Source: Raja brachyura (Eukaryota). Taken from it: 64,000 nucleotides of DNA. Shown in pieces: positions 4,520 through 57,661 of this stretch. Position 1 is the first letter of the stretch, and each line of letters opens with the position of its first letter. The notes below the pieces were generated by a model. The model was given only the letters and a program-made list of their open reading frames with translations, had not been told where the DNA came from and did no database searches. The DNA is taken from the NCBI GenBank assembly GCA_963514005.1, contig OY740784.1:107384001-107448000 (forward strand), written 5' to 3'. A program made the position numbers and the translations under genes.

Positions 4520-4759
4520 AGGGCCTGTCCCACTTGGCGATCTTTTCCGCGACTACCGGCGTCATTTCAGTGTCGCCAAAAGATTTTGAACATTTCAAAT
4601 GTTCAAAATCGGCGACAAAAAAAAATTGTGACACTTGAAAAAAACACCGCCCGCCATACGTCATCACGCCTCGTCACCGCCGCAAATTTTTCGGTGACCT
4701 GAGCCATCTGTCAACGATGCCGGCAGTCGCCGAAAAAATCGCCAAGTGGGATAGGCCCT
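4520..4759. mobile_element. PIF/Harbinger-type MITE, subtype B
   Basis: Imperfect TIRs of about 44 bp starting AGGGCCTGTCCCACTTGGCGAT; flanked by TAA and TTA. Confidence 0.85.
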
Positions 4760-4864
4760 TTAGTAACCCAGGCACTGCCTGCATCTCAGATCATGAGAGA
4801 AATAGTTAGCGTAGTCAAACTCTTTTCCCCCCATAGTAAAAACAAAAGAACATGTGTTTAAGGT

Positions 4865-4993
4865 GTTAAAGAAGGAACTGCAGATGCTGGAAAATCGAGG
4901 GTACACAAAATGCTGGAGAAACTCAGCGGGTGCAGCAGCATCTATGGAGACAAGGAGATAGGTAACGTTTTGGGCCGAAACCCTTCTTCAGAT
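4865..4993 (-). mobile_element. Single-arm Penelope-derived 3' end within a decayed CR1 tail
   Basis: The reverse strand reads tctgaagaagggtttcggcccaaaacgttacc..ccagcatctgcagttccttctttaaca. Confidence 0.8.
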
Positions 4994-5509
4994 GAGAAGC
5001 TGTTATTTCACAGGGGATTTGATGGGTAATCTTTGCTGGAACCACTGGGTGGGACTGGTATCTGGAACTCGCTGACACAGGTGGTGGTGGTGGAGTCAGA
5101 TACATCACTCAGCTTAAGAAGCATTTAGATAGACACTTAAACTGACAAGTCAACAACGATACAGACCTTATGAGATCAAATGAGATTCGAGTAAATGGCT
5201 AAAAGGGTTAGCATGCAAGTTGTGGACTAAAAGGTCTGCTTCTCTGCTGTACGGTTCGCAAAAAACACATAATTGGAAAGTCATTTGGAATCTTGTTGAG
5301 GAAACAAGGCAGAAAGAGCAGCAATCATTAGCGTCCTTAATTGCAATCGACAAGATTAAATTGACATGCCTGCTCATTTTTCTGTCTATTGCACTAATTG
5401 TACAGATTTACGTTCAGACCTTAATTGCAATAATTTGCTGCAATGTCTAAAGAAATTCACATAAACGCATCCAGCTCACAAGAGCGTTTCAGAACCTGAC
5501 CGCTGATGG

Positions 5510-7232: not shown

Positions 7233-8174
7233 AGGTCACTGACTATCATCAGTACTTGGAAAGGTTAGAAATCAAGCATGTCCTAAGTTACAGGTTGAAG
7301 ACAAGTGAACAAAGCGAAAAAATGTCTGTGATGGGCCAGAGACCAAGACACCTAATTACTGTCTGACTGCGCCAACACGGGAGGAACGGTTTCTGCAGAC
7401 TCGTGCAATAAGTAAAACATGTTTCAATTGGGGATTATTTGGAGAATACTGATAGAAATGTATTTGTTGCAAACAGATTGATTAAAAAAAAATTAACTGT
7501 AAGCGAGCTTATCTCAGGGCTGAAATGGATCTGACTACATTGATCGGAATCAATGACTGAAAATGGTGCAAATATTCAGTATGCTGTTGGAACTTGAAGT
7601 AAGTTCATCAAATTAACTCTTGCTAATGGCTTTATTTAAGGAGGATCGCAAGGACAAGCCTAGGAACTATAGGCTGATGAGCATTACATCAGTGGTGGGA
7701 AGGTTACTAGAAGAGATTTTGAGAGACAGATTTAATTGGAAAAGGCAAGTTCTGATTATGGGATAGTTAGCTTGGCCTTTTGCATGTAAATCATGTCTCG
7801 TGAATTAGATGGTGTTTTGTTTCCTCAAGAGGTTACTAAGAGGACTGTTGAGGACAGGGTGGTAGATGTTGTTGAGATGAACTTTAGCCAAGCCTCTGAC
7901 AAGGTTCCACATGTTAGGGCTGGTTTAGAAGGTTGGAAAATATGGGATCAAGAAGGAACCAGCTTCCTTCTTGATCCCATACCGAACTTGATACCAAATT
8001 AACTGAGCGATAACAGACAGATGGTGGCAGAAGATTGGTCATCCAGATTACAAGCCTGTGCCAGAGGAATTCAAAGCTAAATTCAAGCCCGATTCCCCTT
8101 TATGATGAGACACAGGGGCCAGTGTAAAACTAGAAGGCGTAAGTTGAAGTTGAGGGGGGAAAGATTTAAAGGGG

Positions 8175-8392
8175 GGTTACACAAAAAGCTGGAGAAACTC
8201 AGCGGGTGCAGCAGCATCTAAGGAGCGAAGGAGATAGGCGACGTTTCGGGTCGAGACCCTTCTTCAGATGAAGGGTCTCGACCCGAAACGTCGCCTATCT
8301 CCTTCGCTCCTTAGATGCTGCTGCACCCGCTGAGTTTCTCCAGCTTTTTGTGTAACCCTCGATTCTCCAGCATCTGCAGTTCCTTCTTTAAC
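8175..8392. mobile_element. Young Penelope-derived hairpin element: perfect 89-bp inverted arms, 34-nt tail, 14-bp TSD
   Basis: Arms 8174-8262 and 8270-8358 are exact reverse complements; tail 8359-8392; AAGATTTAAAGGGG at 8161-8174 and 8393-8406. Confidence 0.92.
8240..8267 (-). ncRNA. Minimal type I hammerhead-ribozyme-like core
   Basis: The reverse strand reads CTGAAGA-A-GGGTC-TC-GACCC-GAAA-C-GTC. This is a CUGANGA/GAAA/UH core with a stem II hairpin and a palindromic ACGU in place of stem III, as described for Penelope-like elements. Stem I is weak. Confidence 0.55.
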
Positions 8393-8588
8393 AAGATTTA
8401 AAGGGGACCTGAGGAGCAATATTTTCATTCAGGGTTAGTGAATGTAGGATTGTACCTGCCAGAATTGAGGCAGGTACAATTACAACATTTAAAAAATATG
8501 TGGATGGTTCATGGATATAAAAGGTTGAGACCAAACACTGCCAAATGGGACTAGCTTGGACTAGTTGGCTAGTCCCATTTGGCAGTCC

Positions 8589-11159
8589 TTGAGGAATTGT
8601 AAAGGCAAGAAGATACTAATTGGTGTTATTTACAGACCCCCAAATAGTAGCCCGGATGGCATATAACAAAGGTAATGCCACTGTGGTGATGGGGGATTTC
8701 AATATGCAGGTAGACTGGGAAAATCTGGTTGGTTCAGGACCCCAAGAAAGAGAGTTTGTAGAATGCCTCTGAGATGGATTCTTAGAGCAGCTTGTAATGG
8801 AGCCGACCAGAGAAAAGGTAATTCTGGATTTAGTGTTGTCCAATGAACCAGATATGATAAGAGAACTCGAGGTAAAGGAACCGCTTGGAGGTAGTGATCA
8901 TAATATGGTTAGATTTAATCTGCAATTTGAGAAGGAGAAGGTTAAATCGGAAGTGTCAGTGATGCAGTTGAACAAAGGGGACTATGAAGGCATGAGAGAG
9001 GAGCTGGCCAAGGTAGACTGGAAAAGGATCCTAGCAGGAATGACGGTGGAACAGCAATGGCAGGAATTTCTGGGCATAATCCGGAAGACGCAGGATCATT
9101 TCATTCTAAAAAGGAAGAAAGATTCTAAGGGGAGTAGGATGTATAACAAAGCAAAGAGTAGCCGGAAGCCAGAGGATTGGGAAACTTTCATAGGACAACA
9201 GAAGGAAACAAAACGGGCAATACGGGCTGAAAAGATGAAGTACATGGGGAAGCTGGCTAGGGATATAAAGAAGGACAGTAAAAGCTTCCATGTTAAGGGA
9301 AAAAGAGTAGCAAAGTCAAATGTGGGTCCCTTGAAGGCAGACACGGGTGAAATTATTATGGGCAACAAGGAAATGGCAGAAGAGTTGAATAGGTACTTCG
9401 GATCTGTCTTCACTAAGGAAGACACAAACAATCTCCCAGATGTACTGGAGGACAGAGGATCTAAGGGGTAGAGGAACTGGAAGAAATTTTCATTAGGTGA
9501 GAAATAGTATTGGGTAGGCTAATGGGACTGAAGGATGATAAATCCCCTGGGCCTGATGGTCTGGATCCCAGGGTCATAAGGGAGGTGGCTCTAGAAATAG
9601 TGGACGCATTGGTGATCATTTTCCAATGTTCAATAGATTCAGGATCAGTTCCTGTGGATTGGAGAATAGCTAATGTTATCCCAATTTTCAAGAAAGGAGC
9701 GAGAGAGAAAACGGGGAATTACAGACCAGTTAGCCTGACTTCGGTGGTGGGGAAGATGCTGGAGTCAATTATTAAAGAGGTAATAATGGGGCATTTGGAT
9801 AGCAGTAAAAGGATTAGTCCAAGTCAGAAGAAGGGTCTCGACCCGAAACGTCGCCTATCTCCTTCGCTCCTTAGATGCTGCTGCACCCGCTGAGTTTCTC
9901 CAGCTTTTTGTGTAACCCTTAGTCCAAGTCAACATGGATTTATGAAAGGCAAATCATGCTTGACTAATCTTTTGGAATTTTTTGAGGATGTGACAAGTAA
10001 AATGGATGAAGGAGTGCCAGTGGATGTAGTGTATCTAGACTTTCAGAAAGCCTTTGATAAGGTCCCACACGGGAGAATGGTGACTAAAATTAGAGCACAT
10101 GGTATTGGGGGTAGGGTGTTGACATGGATAGAAAATTAGTTGGCAGACAGGAAACAAAGAGTAAGAGTGAACGGGTCCTTTTCAGAATAGCAAATATTAA
10201 TGATTTGGAAAAGGGAATTAGGAGCAACACTAGCAGTTTGCGGATGACACAAAGCTGGGTGGCAGTGTGAACTGTGAAGAGGATGTTAGGAGGTTGCAGG
10301 GTGACCTGGACAGGTTGAGTGAGTGGGCAGATGCAGTATAATATAGATAAATGTGAGGTTATCCACTTTGGCGGCAAAAACAAGGGGGCAGATTATTATC
10401 TCAATGGGGTTAGGTTAGGTAAGGGGGAAGGTGTAGCGAGACCTGGGCGTCCTTGTACACCGGTCACTGAAAGTTGGCGTGCAGGTACAGCAGGTTGTGA
10501 AGAAAGCTAATGGAATGTTGGCCTTCATAACAAGAGGATTTCAGTATAGGAGTAAAGAGGTTCTTCTGCAGTTCTATAGGGCTCTGGTGAGACCACATCT
10601 GTACACATTCAGTTTTGGTCTCCTAGTTTGAGGAAGGACATCCTTGTGATTAAGGCAGTGCAGCGTAGGTTCACGAGATTGATCCCCGGGATGGTGGGAC
10701 TGTCATATGAGGAAAGATTGAAAAGACTAGGCTTGTATTCACTGGAGTTTAGAAGGATGAGGGGGAACTTTGTAGAAACATATACAATTATAAAACGACT
10801 GGACAAGCAAGATGCAGGAAAAATGTTCCCAATGTTGGGCGAGTCCAGAACCAGGGGCCACAGTCTTAGATTCAAGGGGAGGCCATTTACGACTGAGGTA
10901 GAAAAAACGTTTTCACCCAGAGAGTTGTGAATTTATGGAATTCCCTACCACAGAGGGCAGTGGAGGCCAAGTCACTGGATGGATTTAAGAGAGAGTTAGA
11001 TAGAGCTCTAGCGGTTAGTGAAGCCAAGGGATATGGGGAGAAGGGAGGCACGGGTTATTGATAGGGGACGGTCAGTCATGATCACAATGAATGGCAGTGC
11101 TGGCTTCAAGGGCTGAATGGCCTCCTCCTGCACCTATTTTCTACGTTTCTATGTTTCTA
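8589..11159 (+). mobile_element. HER1-like CR1 LINE, 5'-truncated ORF2 (APE endonuclease C-terminus + RT), pseudogenised
   Basis: [80 protein letters not shown]; stops and frameshifts; 3' (TTCTATGT)n-type tail. Confidence 0.95.
9827..9918 (+). mobile_element. Tail-less single-arm Penelope-derived insertion inside the CR1
   Basis: 92 bp, of which 89 bp are identical to arm 8270-8358; 13-bp TSD TTAGTCCAAGTCA at 9814-9826 and 9919-9931. Confidence 0.92.
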
Positions 11160-20429: not shown

Positions 20430-20645
20430 CCTCTTCCCAGGGTAACAATGGGCCATTATGGGCTCCACCCTTCCCTGGTCATTTGTTGCCGGCCGTGCTT
20501 TGTTCTGGTCTTTTCTCACCTCCAATGCCCTCCATGCTACTTTCAGTCTGAAGAAGGGTCCCGATCGAAAAATGAGAGATTAACTTTCTCCAGAGTTGCT
20601 GCCTGACCCACTGAATGACTCCAGCACTTTGTGGCTATCTTCAGA
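20430..20645 (+). mobile_element. Penelope-like element 3' region
   Basis: aacaatgggccattatgggctccacc (also at about 42938), then cagtctgaagaagggtcccgatcgaaa..ccagcactttgtg. Confidence 0.7.
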
Positions 20646-26739: not shown

Positions 26740-26930
26740 ACAAACTGCTAAAGGAACTCAGCAGGTTTGGCAGCAACTGTGGAGGGAAATGGACAGACAA
26801 CATTTTGGGTCGGGATCCTTCTTCAGACTAATGGAGTGGAGGAGAGATAGCCGAGGTGAGGAGAAGTATAGGGGAGGGGCAGTTTGTCAAATGATAGGTG
26901 GATCCAGGTGAGGAGCAGTTGATCGGCAGT
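26740..26930 (-). mobile_element. Penelope 3' region
   Basis: ggaactcagcagg..cattttgggtcgggatccttcttcagact..gataggtggatccagg. Confidence 0.65.
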
Positions 26931-27389: not shown

Positions 27390-27674
27390 TGTGATGCTGG
27401 AATCCCGAGCTCAAAGCAAACTGCTGGAAGAACTCGGCAGGGCAGGCAGCATCTGTGGAGGGAATAAAGGAAGTGGAGCAAAGGAATTGAAGAGTAAAGA
27501 AAGGGGAGTAATGGAATTGAAAGCAGGGCTGTCAGCAGGGACGGAATGCACAGACAACATTTCAGGTTAGCACCTTTCTTCACACCGAAACATCTGACCC
27601 AAAACGTCATCTGTCCATTCCTCCCACAGATGCTGCCTGACTCGGAGTTTCTCCAGCACTTTGTTTTCTGCCCA
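27390..27674. mobile_element. Penelope-derived fold-back element with 12-bp TSD
   Basis: GGTAATGTGTGA at 27378-27389 and 27675-27686; arms ggcagcatctgtggagg and cctcccacagatgctgcc. Confidence 0.75.
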
Positions 27675-32715: not shown

Positions 32716-35221
32716 GAGGTTACAAAAAGATTTAGATTAACTGGGAAAGCGGGCAAAGGAATGGCAGATTTAATTCAACCCAGACAAGCGCAAAGTGATG
32801 CATTTCGAGGGCAGGACGTGTACAGTAAATAACATGCCCCTGGGAAGGGTTGTAGAACGGAGAAGCCAAGGGAGTTCGTTGTTCCCCAAATGTGGTGGCA
32901 CAGGAAGACTAGGTAGTGGAGGCAATGAATAGCACGCTTACCTTCATTGTATCAAGAACTAAAGGGCCCAGGTTCAAGGTGCGAGGGGAAAGATTTAAAG
33001 GTGACCTAAGCAGCAAGTTTTTTCACACAGAGAATAATGGGTTTATGGAATGAGGAAGTAATTGAGGCAGGTACAAATACAATATTTAAACAACATTCAG
33101 AGATGTTCATGGATAGGAAAGGTTTGAAGGAATATGGGCAAAGTTCGATTATATCTTAATTGGTCTGCAATCTTTGGGATATTGGCCTTGCCACCCGCAC
33201 CATCAGTGAATAAAATGTCAGCACAGCTATGCGGTTAGAATTGACTATGGGCCAAAGGTTGCATTGCATTCCTGTCCATTGGCTGGAGCCTTAGATCCAG
33301 TTCAACACTCTATTCCCAGACTGAGGACACGTTGCTCATTAGGTGTATCCTATCTCGATGAGGAAGTAAACCAACATAAAAAGTTCAATGGCACCACACA
33401 AAGATATTGAGAACTCTCCAGAACTCTTGGATTATATTCATCTTCATCCAACGGCACCAAAAGTAACCCATTTGATACTTGGTTCGTGACTGTTTCTTGC
33501 TGTGTGTCCTTTTGTGACACTTCAAAAATAGCCAATGCACTGTAAAGCACTGTAGCATATCCAGAGACTGTGGAACGGCTTTTTAAACGTTATCTCTTCT
33601 TTACCTATAGATCCAAAAACTATTGTATTTATTGAGAAACTATCTACCCAAATGAGGCCACCATCAACATTTCTATCAATCCCAGACAGAACCCCACTTT
33701 CATAGATTGGGGTTCTGTCTGTGCATCCCGGGATTTCAAATCCTGATTATATATTGTCCCGTTTTACTATCCTTGGATCCACTTGGGTGGAGGGGGGGGT
33801 GCAGAGTCCAGCCATGTAACACTGGAAGCATTAGCGAATATAGTATATTACTCCAGAGCCCGCTCCTGTGCTGCCTGAATCCTGTTTGCTTTGATGGATT
33901 GAATTTGATGTCTTGTGATGGCAAATTGGTGAAGATCAATAGCCAGTGAAAATGGGAGTTGGGAGCCAGCTTCTTGAACATTTTTATATTTTAGCTTGCT
34001 ATGAAACTGAAATGAACAATGCTGCATCCACAGAGGGGCTGAGTACTTGTCTGTCACTGCATTGTCAGGGCCCGAGGCATAGCTCCGTTATGTTTTTACA
34101 TCTGCAGGCAGTCAGCCCCCTCATCCCTTGTGATTAATGAGGATTTAGTGTACGCAAAGAGACTTTGTTACTAATCCCTGCGTTTTCCCAGCCAGCTCAC
34201 ACATTGACAGAACGGCCATGTTGATAATCAGTCATCCTCCAAGAGGTACTCGGGACAACCCTAGTATTTACCCAGCCTGCAGAGGAGGCAGCTTGACTTT
34301 GTGAGGTCAATCAAGATCTACTTCCCTGAATTAAACATTGACACAAAGCATGTTGAGAATAATGTAGACTGAATGACATGATACAGCATCATACATCTTG
34401 AGTTCAAATGCTATGATTACCAGAATTCAATAATTTACTCATCTGAATCAGCAACAGGAAAAATATAGGCAGGCTAATAATTCTAGCTGGATCACAATGT
34501 TCTTTAAGGAATGTACCATGTCTTCCAACGTAGGACTCCAGTTCTATGCTTGACCATTGACTGCTACTGCCCCCCAGGGCAATGAGAAATGAATGCCTTC
34601 TCACACAAACCACGTCGAGACCATCCTTTAAAATCAACTCCAGGTGCAGCAGAATTCAATTAATGCTTCTTCTGCAAAATCTATTGATAGATTAAATCAT
34701 AATAACTTTAAGTGTTTGCTTTTTATTAACTAATTAGCAATAGGTCAGATATAAAGGAATTAAGACAATATACAAATGGCAGATTGGATTGCATGAAAGA
34801 CTGAAGTGATTTTTCTCCTTGAAGCTAATTAGGTGACTCTCGGGTGGAGTCTCATCTAAACAGACATCTAACCCATCGGCTTACTCTGGAACCCGGTCCC
34901 TGCACATTTAGGCTATGCCTAAAGAAAGCTGCTATTCATTGTGACTTCCCATTGACAACCATCAAAATCTGAGGATTGTGGATTTGATGACAGTTCCACC
35001 AAGATAGACAGTGGTTCTAACCCCAGCTAAAATGATAGGATAGTTCAAAGAATATATATCAATTTCACAAGAAATTATTTAACATATCTATATCCCAATT
35101 TTAATCATAGCCTCCACCAATCATAGATATGCCCTTTGTCCTAGTCATCCCTCCCTCAGCAACTTAAAACTAACTTGTTTCCTTCCTTCCCCATGTTCTG
35201 ATGAAGGGCTTTGATCTGACA

Positions 35222-35833: not shown

Positions 35834-36444
35834 AGCGAGGACAGGTTTTCCTGTCCACAGACTTAACATTGACCATTTTGAGTACTTTCAGCTTTTATTT
35901 CAGATTTACATTATCCACCCCCCCCCCCCAATTCATTTCCCTCTATTCCATATCAAGGAGATCATTTGATGTTAACCTTCCCTCTTTCCACTTTGGATGT
36001 TTTGATGTTCAGATTGAACTGCTATTTACAGTCGAATTTGTAATTATCCTAGTAAAGTTGACCAGAACCCAATTATTGTTTTTATTTCTGGTCTTTTTCA
36101 TTTTTCACAATTATGTAAATTCTAATGATGTCCAGTGCCACCAAGATACTTGGCAGATGATATAATGACATTGGGAATAATCTGTGAGAATTTAAGGCAA
36201 CTGATATAGGTAATGATACCTTATGTACAGAGATCAACTAAATGAGGTCACATTAACAAGGAGTAAAATCGACAGGTTTCAAATAGTCTCAATTTCAGTA
36301 AACATAGCTGATATTGACAATGATTACTGTGAATCTGCCAAATTTTCCAAAAGCTTCTCCAATTCTTAATGCATTTCGGACAAGGAAATTCTGTTTTCCT
36401 GTTAAAGTCTTGTCTGCAAATCGCTCAAGTCATACTTGAATATG

Positions 36445-36627
36445 GGGCACACAAAAGGCTGGAGAAACTCAGCGGGTGCAGCAGCATCTAAGGAGCGAAG
36501 GAGATAGGCAACGTTTCGGGCCGAAACCCTTCCTTCGCTCCTTAGATGCTGCTGCACCCGCTGAGTTTCTCCAGCCTTTTGTGTACCCTCGATTTTCCAG
36601 CATCTGCAGTTCCTTCTTTAACACTTT
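36445..36627. mobile_element. Penelope-derived hairpin element with tail and TSD
   Basis: TCATACTTGAAT at 36430-36441 and 36628-36639; same arm start and similar tail to 8175-8392. Confidence 0.9.
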
Positions 36628-37721
36628 TCATACTTGAATGTGATTGACATTTAGCTGTCCTCTGAAATCGCCAAGCCAGGACAATGCAGAATCAATTAGG
36701 AAGAGCGTACCTCTTTTGCAGACCTTGGAATTTTACCCTGTAACACGACATTCTGCATTCTGATATTTTTCGCTTTGCATTAACTCTTGTACTTGTATAG
36801 TCTGATTGACTGGATAGCGTGCATGCAAAGCTTTTCACTGTAACTCAGTACACGTGACAGTAATAAATCAATAAATGCTAGTGTAGCCAACAATGTCAAA
36901 TCCTGTGAACAAATTAAAAGAAACGTACAACAAGTTGGGATGGCAAACTGTATAATTGCATTTATTGCAAATGGATACGAATTCTTGACAAAGACCAGGA
37001 GCCCTAATTATAAAGGGGCCGAGGGAGAGCATAACTAGACCTTTTTACACAGGTCTGGTCTCTCCATCTAAGGTGCTTGTATAGGGTGAATGCAACAAAG
37101 ACTCACATTAATTTCTGGATTGGCATGCTAAGTTGATGTTTTCCCTGGCCAAGTGGAGTCCATCAGTCAGAAGAATGGTCCAACCCCAAACATCACCAGC
37201 CCATGTTCTCTAGAGGTGTTGCCTGACTCGCTGAGTTACACCAGAATTGTCTTTTTGTTGGAGTCCATTATCCTCTGTCGGACTACCCATTATTCCAGAT
37301 TCATCCTGGACTGCAAAAACACTTCCCCAGCACATCCATCAACCTCTACCACCTTCTGACCCACTCTCTTCAAATGCAAAAAACGCACACAATCAAAAAG
37401 TTAGTCATGCGCTCAATTGCCTGGCTGAAGATGCATTTTCTTACGATTTGAAAATGGAATATACATTTTGCACAGGTCAGGAGCCAAAGGGTGATGGGGG
37501 GACTAAGGGAGCTGGGAAAACCCAAACACACTAGGGTGACAAGGTTACTAATAAATACGTGCCATCTAACAGCATTTCCATCAACAGCATCCATTACTTT
37601 TTTTTGGAAGATCAGGATTAGACTGACTGGGCAGTAAACTGTACAAGTTCAGGAATGCCACTGTTCTCCGCAGTCACCATCTGCCCACACAAAGGCAGGT
37701 TCAATTCACGTTGTGCCAGCA

Positions 37722-39189: not shown

Positions 39190-39900
39190 AGAAACTGTTG
39201 GATGGAAATGGACAGTGAACATTTCAGTACAGGACCCTTCTTCACACTGATAAACGTAGAGATTAGATAGTTAGTGAGAGGAAGTGGTGGGGTAAGAATT
39301 GGCAAATGATAGGTGGATTTGTGTGAGAAGGAGCTAACAGGCAGAGAAGTCAAGTTGGGAAGAGAAGGGTGCTATAGTAACAAGTCTGAGGGTGCAAAGG
39401 TTGGTAAGATGGATAAATGGGAATGGGAGAGGGTAGCAGGAATGAGGGGCCTAGGTAGGGAAGGGTGGGAGATGAGCGGCTGGAGGATGGGAAAGAAATA
39501 GATGCTAATTCCTTACCCCATCTCTTCCCAACCCTCTGTCACCCCTCCCTACCGTGTACCTAAAAGTGGCATCAAGTTGGAGGTATTGGGCCTTACACTG
39601 GCAGATCCACTGAATACAAAGGCAGGTCTGGTGAAAGTCAAGGATGAGGGGATTCCATCCGTGTTCCGGCTGGGAAGGCGAATGTGAGAACACACAAGGA
39701 AACCGGAACTGGTGCAGTTGAGAATGCTGTCAACTAAGAAGGAAGGGAAACCACAGTGGAAGCAAAAAGGAAGAAACATTTGAAGTAGCGATGTGGAAGA
39801 CTGCTTTGTCAGACGAAATGTGACTGAGAAAATAGGAGAACAAAACAAGTCCTTTCAGGAGCAAGCACATTTTTTTTTTCAGATTTCCTGAACTCCTCAT
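39190..39900 (-). mobile_element. Decayed Penelope-like element (3' region and coding remnant)
   Basis: ggacccttcttcacactga, a purine-rich 3' UTR, and reverse-strand FHIATSNVSSF / GFPS-like remnants of the RT C-terminus. Confidence 0.55.
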
Positions 39901-42434: not shown

Positions 42435-43365
42435 ACAAAAAAAAAACTTGTGGAGAACTCAGTGGTTGAAGCAGCATCTGTGATCGAAATGGACAGATGA
42501 TTCAGTTTGGGACATTTCTTCAGACTGATGGAGTAGAGGTGAGATAGTTGGTAGAACGAGGTGAAGAGGAAGAGCAAGGCAAAAACTGGCAAGTAATAGG
42601 TGAATTCAGGTTGACGAGGGATTGATTGGCAGATGAGTCAAGCGGGAGAAAGGTGTAAATGGGGAGAGGTTGGGAACTTTGTAAATGAGAAGGTGGGGGT
42701 TTACTGAAATTGGAGAATTCAATATTCATGCCGAGGCCAAATGCAAACTGGAGGAAGAGCGCCTCATATTTTGCTCGGGCAGCTTACAATCCAACGGTAT
42801 GAATATTGATGTCTCTAACTTTAAGTAATCCTTTCATCCCCTCTCTTGCCGTCGCTCCCCCATCCTAGTCGTCATACTAGTTTCACTGTCATCCTACTGA
42901 GTTTACTGTTTATCTCTTTATCATCTTCCCCTCAGCCAACAATGGGCCATTGTGGGCTCCACCTTTCCTTGATCATCATTGTTGGCTTTAATCTGTCTTT
43001 TTGCATTATCTTTCATTATTTTTTTCTATGTACCTTTTCATATCTCGCGGTTCCCACTCCCCTGTGAAGTTGAGTCTCGACCCAAAACATCAACTATTCC
43101 TTTTCTGCAGAGATGCTGCCTGATCCACTGCCTTCCTCCAGCTTTTTGTTTTTATCTTCAATGTTGATACCGTTGGGTTGTAAGCTCGCCAAACACAACA
43201 AGAGCATGCTATTCCTCCACTTTGTGTGTGGCCTCACTGGCAATAGAGGTAGAGAGCAAACAGGATAGTATGGGAATTAGAAGGGACATTAAAATGGCCA
43301 GCAACCGGGAGCTCCGGCAGGTCCTGGCAGACTGAGGATGTGTTGAGGGACACAGTCACCTAGTC
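42435..43365. mobile_element. Reverse Penelope-like element with a sense Penelope 3' fragment (about 42730-43160) inserted
   Basis: Sense CKLEEERLIFCSGSLQSNGMNID; reverse MNIEFSNF on the left and a GIY-YIG C-terminal remnant on the right. Confidence 0.75.
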
Positions 43366-47895: not shown

Positions 47896-48293
47896 TGCCC
47901 CTCCCTGTGCCCCCGTGTCCCACTCTGTGCCCCCGTGCCCACCTCTTTCTACCCCCCTCCCTCTCTAGCCGTGCCTGCAAGTGGATAGGGCGGTGATGGG
48001 GTAAAATGAGCCAATGCATAATATTAATATAATAGCTAGGGGGGGTGGTTAGTGTGTGTGTGTCTGTGGGGAGTGGTNNNNNNNNNNNNNNNNNNNNNNN
48101 NNNNNNNNNNNNNNNNNNNNNNNNNNNNNNNNNNNNNNNNNNNNNNNNNNNNNNNNNNNNNNNNNNNNNNNNNNNNNNNNNNNNNNNNNNNNNNNNNNNN
48201 NNNNNNNNNNNNNNNNNNNNNNNNNNNNNNNNNNNNCCACCCCCACAACTGCGCGTTGAGGGGACGGGACCCAACGGGTCTCACTTGGTCTAG
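47896..48293 (+). mobile_element. Helitron-like 3' portion spanning the assembly gap
   Basis: Hairpin GGGACCC-aac-GGGTCTC (48266-48282), then ACTTGGT and CTAG (48290-48293) followed by T. Confidence 0.6.
48078..48236. other. Assembly gap (159 N)
   Basis: Run of N. Confidence 0.99.
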
Positions 48294-55766: not shown

Positions 55767-57661
55767 TAGAGTTAAAATTGGCATGTAGTAAAGGCAATGC
55801 TACGGTTGTTATGGGAGCTTCAACATGGGACTGGGAAAATCAGGTTGCCACTGACCCCAAGAAAGGGAGTTTGTGGAATGCCTCTGTGATGGATTCTTAG
55901 AGCAGCTTGTATTGAAGTCTACCAGGGAGAAGGCAATTCTGGATTTAGTGTTATGTAATGAACCGGATTTGATAAAGGAACTTGAAGTTAAGGAGCCATT
56001 AGGAGGTAGTGACCATAATATGGTCAAGTATAATCTACAATTGGAGAGGGAGAACGGTAAATGGGAGATGTCAGGGTTACAGTTGAATAAAGGGGACTAT
56101 GGAACCATGAGGGAAGAGCTGGACAAAGTTGACTGAAAAAATACCCTAGCATGGATGACAGTGGAACAACAATGGCAGGTATTTCTGGGAATAATACAGA
56201 AGGTGCAGGATCAGTTCATTCCAAAGAGGAAGAAAGTGTCCACGGGGAGTAAGGGGCGACTGCGGCTGACAAGGGACGTCAGGGACAGTATAAAATTAAA
56301 AGAGAAGTACAACGTATCAATGATGAGCGGGAAGCCAGAGGATTGGGTAATGTTTAAAGAGCAATAGAAGATAACTAAAAAGGCAATACGGGGAGAAAAG
56401 ATGAGGTACGAAGGTAAGCCAGCCAAGAATATAAAGGAGAAGCTTATTTAGGTATGTGAAGAGGAAAAAAAATAGTTAAGACCAAAGTTGGACCCTTGAA
56501 GACTGAAAAAGGTGAATTTATTATGGGGAACAAGGAAATGGCAGATGAGTTGAACAGGTACTTTGGATCACTAAGGAGGACACAAACAATCTTCCTGATA
56601 TACTAGTGGCCATGGGATCTGGGGTGATGGAGGAACTGAAGGAAATCCACATTAGGCAGGAAATGGTGTTGGGTAGACTGATGGAACTGAAGGCTGATAA
56701 ATCCCCAGGGCCTGATGGTCTGCATCCTAGGGTACTTAGGAAGTGGCTCTAAAAATCGTGGATGTATTGGTGATAATTTTCCAATGTTCTATAGATTCAG
56801 GATTAGTCCCTGTGGATTGGAGGGTAACTAATGTTATCCTACTTTTTAAGAAAGGAGAGAGAGAAAACACTCCGTCATTTTCGCCACCTCCAACGTGACC
56901 CCACCACTCGCCACATCTTCCCATCTCGCCCTGTCTGCTTTCCGTAAATAACGCTCCCTCCGTAATTCCCTGGTCAATTCTTCCCATCTCGCCCCCTCCC
57001 CGGGCACTTTCCCGTGCAACCATAAGAGATGCTAGACTTGTCACTTTACCTCCCCCTCGACTCCATTCAAGGACCCAAGCAGTCATTCCAGGTGCGACAG
57101 AGTTTCACCTGCACCTCCTCCAACCTCATCTATTGCATCCGCTGCTCTAGATGTCAGCTGATCTACATCGGTGAGACCAAGCGTACGCTTGGCGATCGTT
57201 TCGCCGAACACCTCCGCTCGGTCCGCAATAACCAATCTGATCTCCCGGTGGCTCAGCACTTCAACTCTCCCTCCCATTCCGAAGCCAACCTTTCTGTCCT
57301 GGGCCTCCTCCATAGCCAGAGTGAGCACCACCGGAAATTGGAGGAGCAGCACCTCGCAGTTTACACCCCAGCGGCATGAACATTGACTTCTCCAATTTCC
57401 GGTAGCCCTTATTGTCTCCTCCCCCTCTGCTCTCCCTCAACCCTCTGGCTCCTCCTCCTCCTTTTTCTCTGCCTCAGAGGCTGGCTCTCTGGATACTTTC
57501 AAGAGAGAGCTGGATAGGGCTCTTATAGATAGCGGAGTCAGGGGATATGGTGTGAAGGCAGGAACGGGGTACTGATTGGGGATGACCATCCATGATCACA
57601 TTGAATGGTGGTGCTGGCTCGAAGGGCCGTATGACCTACTCATGCACATATTGTCTATTGT
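55767..57661 (+). mobile_element. CR1 (endonuclease to RT N-terminus, then 3' UTR) nested in the right Tc1 TIR
   Basis: AILDLVLCNEPD..SDHN, KSPGPDG, VPVDWRVTNVI; the RT core is missing; tail tattgtctattgt. Confidence 0.9.
56868..57465 (+). pseudogene. Neptune-type Penelope GIY-YIG endonuclease remnant
   Basis: Cys-rich linker PCNHKRC*TC, then FTCTSSNLIYCIRCSRCQLIYIGETKR..DRFAEH..VAQHFN..LEEQHL..GMNIDFS; stop at about 57405. Confidence 0.9.

Follow-up and report, generated by a model that had tools for sequence, protein, structure and literature searches.

Insertions of endonuclease-bearing (EN+) Penelope-like elements (PLEs) have been described as having an inverted pseudo-LTR (pLTR) and an optional tail (Arkhipova et al., 2013, PMC3846280; Craig et al., 2021, PMC8557442). 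A cysteine linker of the form C-x2-5-C-x2-C, located between the reverse transcriptase (RT) and the endonuclease (EN), is given as a mark of Neptune and Nematis (Craig et al., 2021). The insertion process has been studied in vitro for PAc, a Poseidon element from Anolis carolinensis, whose protein was reported to cut and extend both target strands, with reverse transcription beginning at two mapped sites that delimit the tail (Frangieh et al., 2024, PMC11167929). In the same account, the PAc hammerhead depended on protein, and insertion in vitro could proceed without it. Minimal hammerheads from PLEs have been characterised as well, with no cleavage described for the monomers and weak cleavage for the dimers (Cervera and de la Pena, 2014, PMC4209133).

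The locus considered here comes from the skate Raja brachyura and was analysed within a window of 64,000 nucleotides, that is, the whole stretch of DNA under study, which contains 159 N in total and an assembly gap at about 48080–48240. A 218-bp insert with no open reading frame (ORF) occupies positions 8175–8392 and interrupts the 3' part of a LINE, which we take to be of the CR1 type; the neighbouring LINE frames gave weak endonuclease and RT matches, under the Pfam cut-offs. The insert is flanked by identical 14-mers, both on the plus strand, the left one (8161–8174) lying in the 3' fragment of the host LINE and the right one at 8393–8406. Between these target-site duplications (TSDs) are found a left arm on the minus strand (8175–8262), representing the pLTR end without the tail, with its 3' end (8175) at an inner start site; a 7-nt loop (8263–8269), which forms the head-to-head junction and contains the first five letters of the minus-strand hammerhead core; a right arm on the plus strand (8270–8358), representing the sense pLTR end with six letters clipped at its 5' side and fully complementary to the left arm; and a 34-nt PLE tail, also on the plus strand (8359–8392), with an outer start site at 8392. 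The perfect arms measure 89 bp (8174–8262 and 8270–8358), with base 8174 belonging to the left TSD too, leaving 88 bp inside the insert. All parts of this anatomy (218-bp insert, 89-bp arms, 7-nt loop, 34-nt tail and 14-bp TSD) had been proposed by a sequence-only reading of the window and are present in the sequence. As an RNA, the 218-bp hairpin folds at -192 kcal/mol (z = -27.5), a value equalled by none of 200 shuffles. The region of the target 14-mer occurs only once in each of five other copies of the host LINE (32957, 47699, 1895, 59521, and 25917), and the TSD score at this insert is 14, with no score above 9 among 150 random position pairs, which indicates that the duplication is genuine. 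Given that both the arms and the TSD are perfect, the insertion is recent.

The DNA around the insert has features of its own. Three perfect hairpins lie in host LINE DNA within 350 bp of the element, at 7941–7981, 8449–8480 and 8537–8586 (arms of 18, 12, and 19 bp, respectively). Together with the element, they account for four of the six perfect inverted repeats in the 64 kb (at least 12 bp, spacer of at most 15), all four within 7941–8586. At 7941–7981 and 8449–8480 only one arm aligns to other LINE copies, and these two hairpins therefore look like local template-switch inversions. Other isolated perfect hairpins, of 14 bp, occur at 4582–4610 and 33683–33721.

When compared to the published accounts of EN+ PLEs, the insert shares the inverted 5'-truncated copy, the tail at one end only (34 nt here, 30–40 bp as described), the TSD (about 8–14 bp, variable or none, as described) and the short palindrome at the inverted junction. 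It differs in consisting of two pLTR ends only, with no ORF between them, as well as in its cartilaginous-fish host and its sharp 5' edge. Unlike an autonomous EN+ PLE, it lacks an RT-EN ORF and constitutes a truncated product. The best explanation is that the insert was dead on arrival, a fully 5'-truncated copy of an EN+ PLE of Neptune/Nematis type, of which only the last ~95–129 nt of the pLTR were laid down, twice and head-to-head.

A PLE origin had already been suggested by the sequence-only reading, which proposed a match to PLE 3' ends as a test, and such matches were found among older relatives of the arm. These relatives, 69–76% identical, follow remnants of RT/GIY-YIG ORFs at three places in the window. 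At 42733–43150 on the plus strand, the C-terminus of a PLE ORF (42733–42825) is followed by its 3' UTR, with ~240 pyrimidine-rich nucleotides before an older arm homologue (43063–43150, 75.6% identity); in a local search, the frame aligned to the C-terminal end of proteins from rays and sharks (60.6%, E = 3.5e-8). The same order of ORF and arm has been detected on the minus strand at 42733–42451 and at ~39850–39230, where the upstream frame resembles the same ray and shark proteins (E = 2e-5). Based on this homology, the arm is assigned as the pLTR end of a PLE, linked to the ORF through its older relatives. No ORF-linked copy of the young subfamily (8175, 9827, 36445, 4864) occurs in the 64-kb window. 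In EN+ PLEs, the first codons of the ORF are overlapped by the pLTR and tail; here, translations of the arm and tail gave no match to 341 proteins, none of which is a known full-length skate PLE (best E = 0.46), and no ORF start was found. The region at 42436–43344 is itself a nested old PLE structure, in which two different PLE 3' ends are joined head-to-head at 42733, inside their ORF ends, with another inverted ORF end, the third, at 43158–43344; its arms belong to different subfamilies, unlike those of the short fold-backs.

The enzyme group is indicated by a broken PLE remnant on the plus strand at 56860–57403, comprising the end of the thumb, a C-x4-C-x2-C linker (at 57015, with a stop inside) and a GIY-YIG domain (57059–57355). 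The domain passes Pfam PF01541 (26 bits, cut-off 22.6), and its best relatives are skate, ray and shark proteins that carry RT motifs, the C-x4-C-x2-C linker, which is found in P0001–P0016, and GIY-YIG. These relatives link in turn to 97 proteins of 822–1939 aa, most with an RT Pfam match and some with a GIY-YIG match too, and a profile-free search with P0005 confirmed a large protein family. Taken alone, neither the 31-aa C-terminal peptide nor the 26-aa linker piece matched Pfam. The mobiliser is likely a Neptune-type or, more strictly, a Neptune/Nematis-type protein; the linker in the 57015 remnant and its relatives agrees in this wider form with the earlier proposal of a Neptune-type enzyme. 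The endonuclease remnant begins directly behind a LINE fragment and carries a short deletion close to the C-terminus; its last bases (57387–57403) form a 17-bp inverted match to 57330–57346.

A sensitive search with the arm and tail as query detected 27 matching stretches in the 64-kb window, ranging from 66% to 100% identity. Among them, a solo arm without the tail (9827–9918, plus strand; 9814–9931 with its 13-bp TSD) lies within a LINE RT frame, is identical over 92 nt to the arm at 8175 and breaks off precisely where the tail would begin. A second young fold-back (36430–36642, plus strand) has its own centre, one tail, an exact 12-bp TSD (15 bp with one mismatch) and a private variant common to both of its arms. 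A solo arm with the tail, 91% identical and with no clear TSD, is found on the minus strand at 4864–4992 and served as the reference for the contig alignment. Clear TSDs of 12–14 bp, each different, were present in five of the 16 insertions tested (2441, 7025, 8175, 9827, and 36445); two more have 10–11-bp matches with one mismatch, inside the range of 150 random pairs, and the remaining ones have no TSD, so that 11 of the 16 lack a TSD clearly above random scores. The identical-arm insertions at 9814–9931 and 8161–8406 are only 1.4 kb apart, both in LINE copies, and a single source that re-inserted locally could account for this close pair. The 9814 TSD ends in bases similar to the native ones of the 5' edge, with 4 nt of microhomology.

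MITEs of the Tc1/mariner type are defined by inverted repeats at each terminus together with a constant TA duplication. The insert is short and non-coding, with inverted repeats and a high copy number, as would be expected of a MITE, but its repeats are not terminal, a 34-nt tail being present on one side, and the TSDs of the family measure 12–14 bp, all different, with no fixed TA seen. There are solo arms as well, and the arm shows homology to PLE 3' ends. A DNA-transposon origin is thus given a negligible probability, being excluded by the TSD and homology results, which agree with the previous suggestion that the element moves by reverse transcription.

In public data, the right half of the insert or part of it was present in 20 of the 23 runs listed, under seven organism labels, with all sampled words found in 17; the runs with partial word shares include three metatranscriptome runs. 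Alignment to the related solo copy (4835–5020) recovered 42,491, 5,127, 3,720, and 19 contigs in four runs; these are assembled contigs, for which the RNA status of the runs was guessed and one run was marked as probably DNA. The arm family is a major repeat. No description of it in skates or sharks was found by title or abstract start, a search that did not extend to subscription papers, Repbase or Dfam.

Copies of the family end at either of two 3' sites separated by 34 nt, and all three products expected of two start sites are present: the arm only (9827), the arm with the tail (4864) and the two joined head-to-head (8175). On the 5' side there is a sharp edge, located at the start of the hammerhead core, with the sequence TCAGTCTGAAG. 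Among the 22 of 473 rows listed, loose contig ends with unrelated flanks were counted at the 5' edge (4992; 279, 47 and 28 contigs in three runs), at the tail end (4864/4863; 300 and 24 contigs) and at the inner site (4897/4899; 14 and 14 contigs), with a flank agreement of 0.35–0.43 in the rows listed. Loose ends at 4903–4910 and 4949–4956 were rejected as element ends and attributed to subfamily differences. The contig variant table was left out of the assessment of core conservation, as contigs that differ there are clipped and the table has no entry at 4964–4992, even at places where the reference copy departs from its relatives. These 3' ends recall those reported for PAc, where two 3' ends likewise bound the tail, the hammerhead lies a short way upstream and, as would apply here, both target strands are cut (Frangieh et al., 2024). 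The outer end lies 120 nt from the start of stem II here, and 111–118 nt into an ORF starting at stem II in PAc. In contrast to PAc, which belongs to Poseidon, the clade here is of Neptune/Nematis type by its cysteine linker.

The predicted ribozyme cut lies ~28 nt downstream of the 5' edge, which argues that the edge is not made by cleavage. Directly before the edge, a pyrimidine tract followed by YAG is present in the four copies with native upstream sequence (20547, 26827, 42524, and 39246), where these stretches span 20480–20547, 26827–26895, 42524–42592 and 39246–39310; the 39246 copy also has a branch-point-like CTAAC ~25 nt upstream. An edge of this kind fits the initiator consensus. 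It fits a 3' splice site as well, as in Drosophila virilis, where the PLE intron is described as ending at helix I (Cervera and de la Pena, 2014) and, by the account of Schostak et al., lies 46 bp after the start site. The tract and YAG before the core are possibly an intron end or an initiator.

The way in which the inversion forms can be approached through the fold-backs of the window, seven of which are readable (2441, 7025, 8175, 36445, 40062, 46733, and 47478), those at 27535 and 59025 having been left out as too decayed. The centres of all seven are different, each has exactly one tail, and in each at least one arm starts at most 7 nt from the TCTGAAG edge. A tail at one end only is already known for PLEs (Craig et al., 2021); if arms picked their start sites independently and at even odds, one tail in seven out of seven would have a chance of ~0.008. 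In two young fold-backs, the arms show no differences over 54 nt within an insertion and 1 of 54 and 4 of 83 nt between insertions, and this pattern of agreement within and difference between insertions indicates that both arms derive from one template. Strand-switch joints were also detected in the contigs, five of them distinct among the eight joints listed of 12; the other three of the eight share position 4949, which adjoins two private mismatches, and were disregarded as potential artefacts of the alignment. The differing centres, the single tail and the solo arm that stops at the tail boundary together argue that the palindrome arises at insertion, and against a fixed unit of 218 bp. It is considered probable, on this evidence, that the locus is a PLE pLTR stub with an inversion built at insertion. 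The earlier view of the 218-bp hairpin as a self-propagating mini-element is not supported, since the centres differ in all seven and solo arms of the same sequence exist.

An inversion arising after insertion, through template switching during replication or through repair of a hairpin where the DNA is locally unstable, would be in keeping with the three short hairpins (12–19 bp) in the adjoining host DNA. Such an origin is nonetheless highly unlikely, as both arms lie exactly between the two TSD copies, seven sites repeat the layout, and inverted pLTRs are presented as a general PLE trait (Arkhipova et al., 2013; Craig et al., 2021).

For the inversion built at insertion, twin priming is put forward tentatively, as a route that falls a little short of probable: both nicks would prime at two start sites of one RNA, followed by run-off and joining of the cDNA ends. 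An RT/GIY-YIG protein would cut both target strands, 14 nt apart. One 3'-OH would serve as primer at the inner start site, and its counterpart at the outer site, at the end of the tail, with the same RNA reverse-transcribed from both; the two cDNAs would run to the 5' edge of the template near TCTGAAG. The cDNA ends would then be joined head-to-head, with one untemplated base at 8175 and with 2–3 nt of microhomology or the edge palindrome elsewhere. No paper on twin priming in Penelope elements was found by title.

Twin priming on the same RNA and snap-back of one cDNA predict identical final DNA. In snap-back, the cDNA primed at the tail end would reach the 5' edge, fold on a palindrome, copy itself and jump to the other target strand at the inner site, which would account for the identical arms and the single tail. 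The 5' edge is indeed a small self-complementary sequence, TTCAG-N-CTGAA, which forms the exact centre of the 46733 fold-back; the three C's of the inner site match the G's that end the left TSD, and junction palindromes have been taken as self-priming by Arkhipova et al. (2013). However, at most of the centres the two sides are unequal, one arm having lost from 6 to more than 40 nt, and the 9827 solo arm uses the inner site without tail or inversion, which argues that this site starts on its own. Snap-back is regarded as possible, on the improbable side.

The twin-priming account may be taken further, into a reading that we consider doubtful as a whole. The fold-backs would represent a large natural record of PLE inversion, with one RNA copied twice by a protein dimer, from two start sites into two nicks, and with both cDNAs stopping at the 5' edge, that is, at the start of the hammerhead core behind the pyrimidine tract and YAG, instead of at the ribozyme cut. 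The stubs would then be complete run-off copies of the RNA 5' end and not random truncations.

The source RNA may have been different. Under a rather unlikely alternative, the template would be a dedicated short non-coding RNA of ~130–150 nt, similar to a SINE or retrozyme, that stems from the pLTR and is copied by a Neptune-type protein acting in trans, with the inversion still formed at insertion; this alternative is compatible with an insertion-built pLTR stub, the source RNA being the sole difference. It would agree with the very high copy number (42,491 contigs in one DNA run), with the sharp 5' edge and its unrelated flanks, and with the young subfamily having no ORF-linked copy in the window. 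Non-autonomous PLE derivatives have already been published (Craig et al., 2021; Li, Clavereau and Pollet, 2026, 10.64898/2026.07.22.740005), and the insert resembles the animal non-LTR retrozymes of the latter report in being non-coding, pLTR-related, hammerhead-bearing and found in a chondrichthyan. Those retrozymes are described as head-to-tail tandem repeats, whereas a head-to-head pair with a tail is present here, and no head-to-tail tandem array of arm units occurs among the 22 TRF rows of the window. Head-to-tail joints with 12-, 29- and 33-letter linkers do occur in contigs (12 of 61 rows listed), but these linkers are unlike each other, and their ends resemble the sequence natively found upstream in ORF-linked copies, as would be the case in partial tandems of ordinary PLEs. 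In addition, stubs of the same form would result from run-off at the 5' end of an autonomous mRNA. The 12-letter-linker joints, which lead from the tail end back to the core, occur in two variants with depths of 164 and 84, compared with ~20–30 for apparently single-copy contigs of the run; in the rows listed, the 29- and 33-letter linkers come from other runs than the 12-letter one. It is possible that the head-to-tail joints reflect a small tandem unit of ~140 nt.

The remaining feature of the arms is a minimal type I hammerhead core, located on the minus strand at 8240–8267, with a predicted cut between 8240 and 8239. From 8267 to 8240 the minus strand reads CTGAAGA-A-GGGTC-TC-GACCC-GAAA-CGTC, which contains the core C3-U4-G5-A6-N7-G8-A9, G12-A13-A14 and N-U-H, an extra base before 10.1, G10.1-C11.1 and a palindromic 15.2-16.2. 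The sequence-only reading had placed this core on the minus strand of the left arm; the core is intact, but its first five letters lie across the loop, outside the arm. Its identification as a minimal type I hammerhead stands, with the extra A after A9 being a listed feature of PLE minimal hammerheads. The metazoan families are reported to share the type I core, the extra nucleotide between 9 and 10.1, G10.1-C11.1, the palindromic 15.2-16.2 without loop III and a mostly solo occurrence with some opposite-strand pairs (Cervera and de la Pena, 2014). Steric constraints forbid a loop II of 2 nt, and stem II is therefore better drawn as 4 bp with a 4-nt loop, compared with 6–8 bp in the published families. 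Stem I is 1 bp (U-G) in the 8175 copy and 2 bp with native upstream bases, within the earlier estimate of at most 1–2 bp, and compares with 4–5 bp in the published families and 2 bp in D. virilis. Two supplements of Cervera and de la Pena (2014) contain no shark or skate hammerhead. A second core, damaged by a U4 to A change, is read from the sequence across the junction on the plus strand (8265–8292).

A relaxed minimal-hammerhead descriptor gave three matches in the window, all in the arm family, against 0–1 per crude shuffle (n = 10). The Rfam search that had been proposed as a test gave no hammerhead model match up to E = 10, the 19 matches listed being below-threshold miRNA, snoRNA and similar models, and the exact core patterns had no matches in metagenome, viral and prokaryote contigs. 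Across 16 arms, mostly from decayed copies, stem II is paired in 79.7% of cells and the whole hammerhead structure in 78.2%, against 14.5–45.7% in slid controls; the covariation score was reached by 374 of 500 shuffles of these 16 mostly decayed copies. A downstream block is about as conserved as the core. In computed folds, the probability of stem II is 0.0000 in both full transcripts, where forcing it costs 27.5 kcal/mol, and ~0.005 in the isolated arm. As the antisense arm would be made first in either transcript and the core thereby trapped, the ribozyme is unlikely to act in the 8175 copy. The dimer model cannot apply in cis, given that the motifs lie on opposite strands and the plus-strand core is damaged. 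By its sequence, the motif is a genuine member of the family, and the fold models indicate that it is most likely inert in the 8175 copy, where it would be a passenger of the pLTR, folded away in the transcript.

This bears on the reading of the 218-bp hairpin itself as a ribozyme-active mini-retroelement, which would be transcribed, cleave itself as a dimer and reinsert. One strand does carry an intact core, two motifs lie close together and the arms are perfect. Even so, this reading is most improbable: the fold-back centres differ in seven out of seven, a single transcript would never hold two intact cores, the core is sequestered, with a 1-bp stem I and a covariation no higher than in shuffles, and the 5' ends lie upstream of the cut site instead of at the cut.

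The inverted pLTR, the tail, the variable TSD, the extra A after A9 and the minimal hammerhead are all published PLE features in the sources cited above. The 8175 insert has a known PLE insertion layout with a known ribozyme motif, and its value lies in its use as material. If transcribed, the perfect 89-bp hairpins would act as sources of double-stranded RNA, with possible consequences for small RNAs and editing, and not as ribozymes. The origin of the inverted ends and tails of PLEs is treated as still unsettled in the published accounts (Arkhipova et al., 2013; Craig et al., 2021; Frangieh et al., 2024). In a young family whose arms are perfect and TSDs clean, and which has two 3' ends but one sharp 5' edge, a genome-wide count could separate twin priming from snap-back, and the same family could locate the 5' end of the PLE RNA. 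Should the run-off reading of the stubs be true, many thousands of copies could serve to test it.
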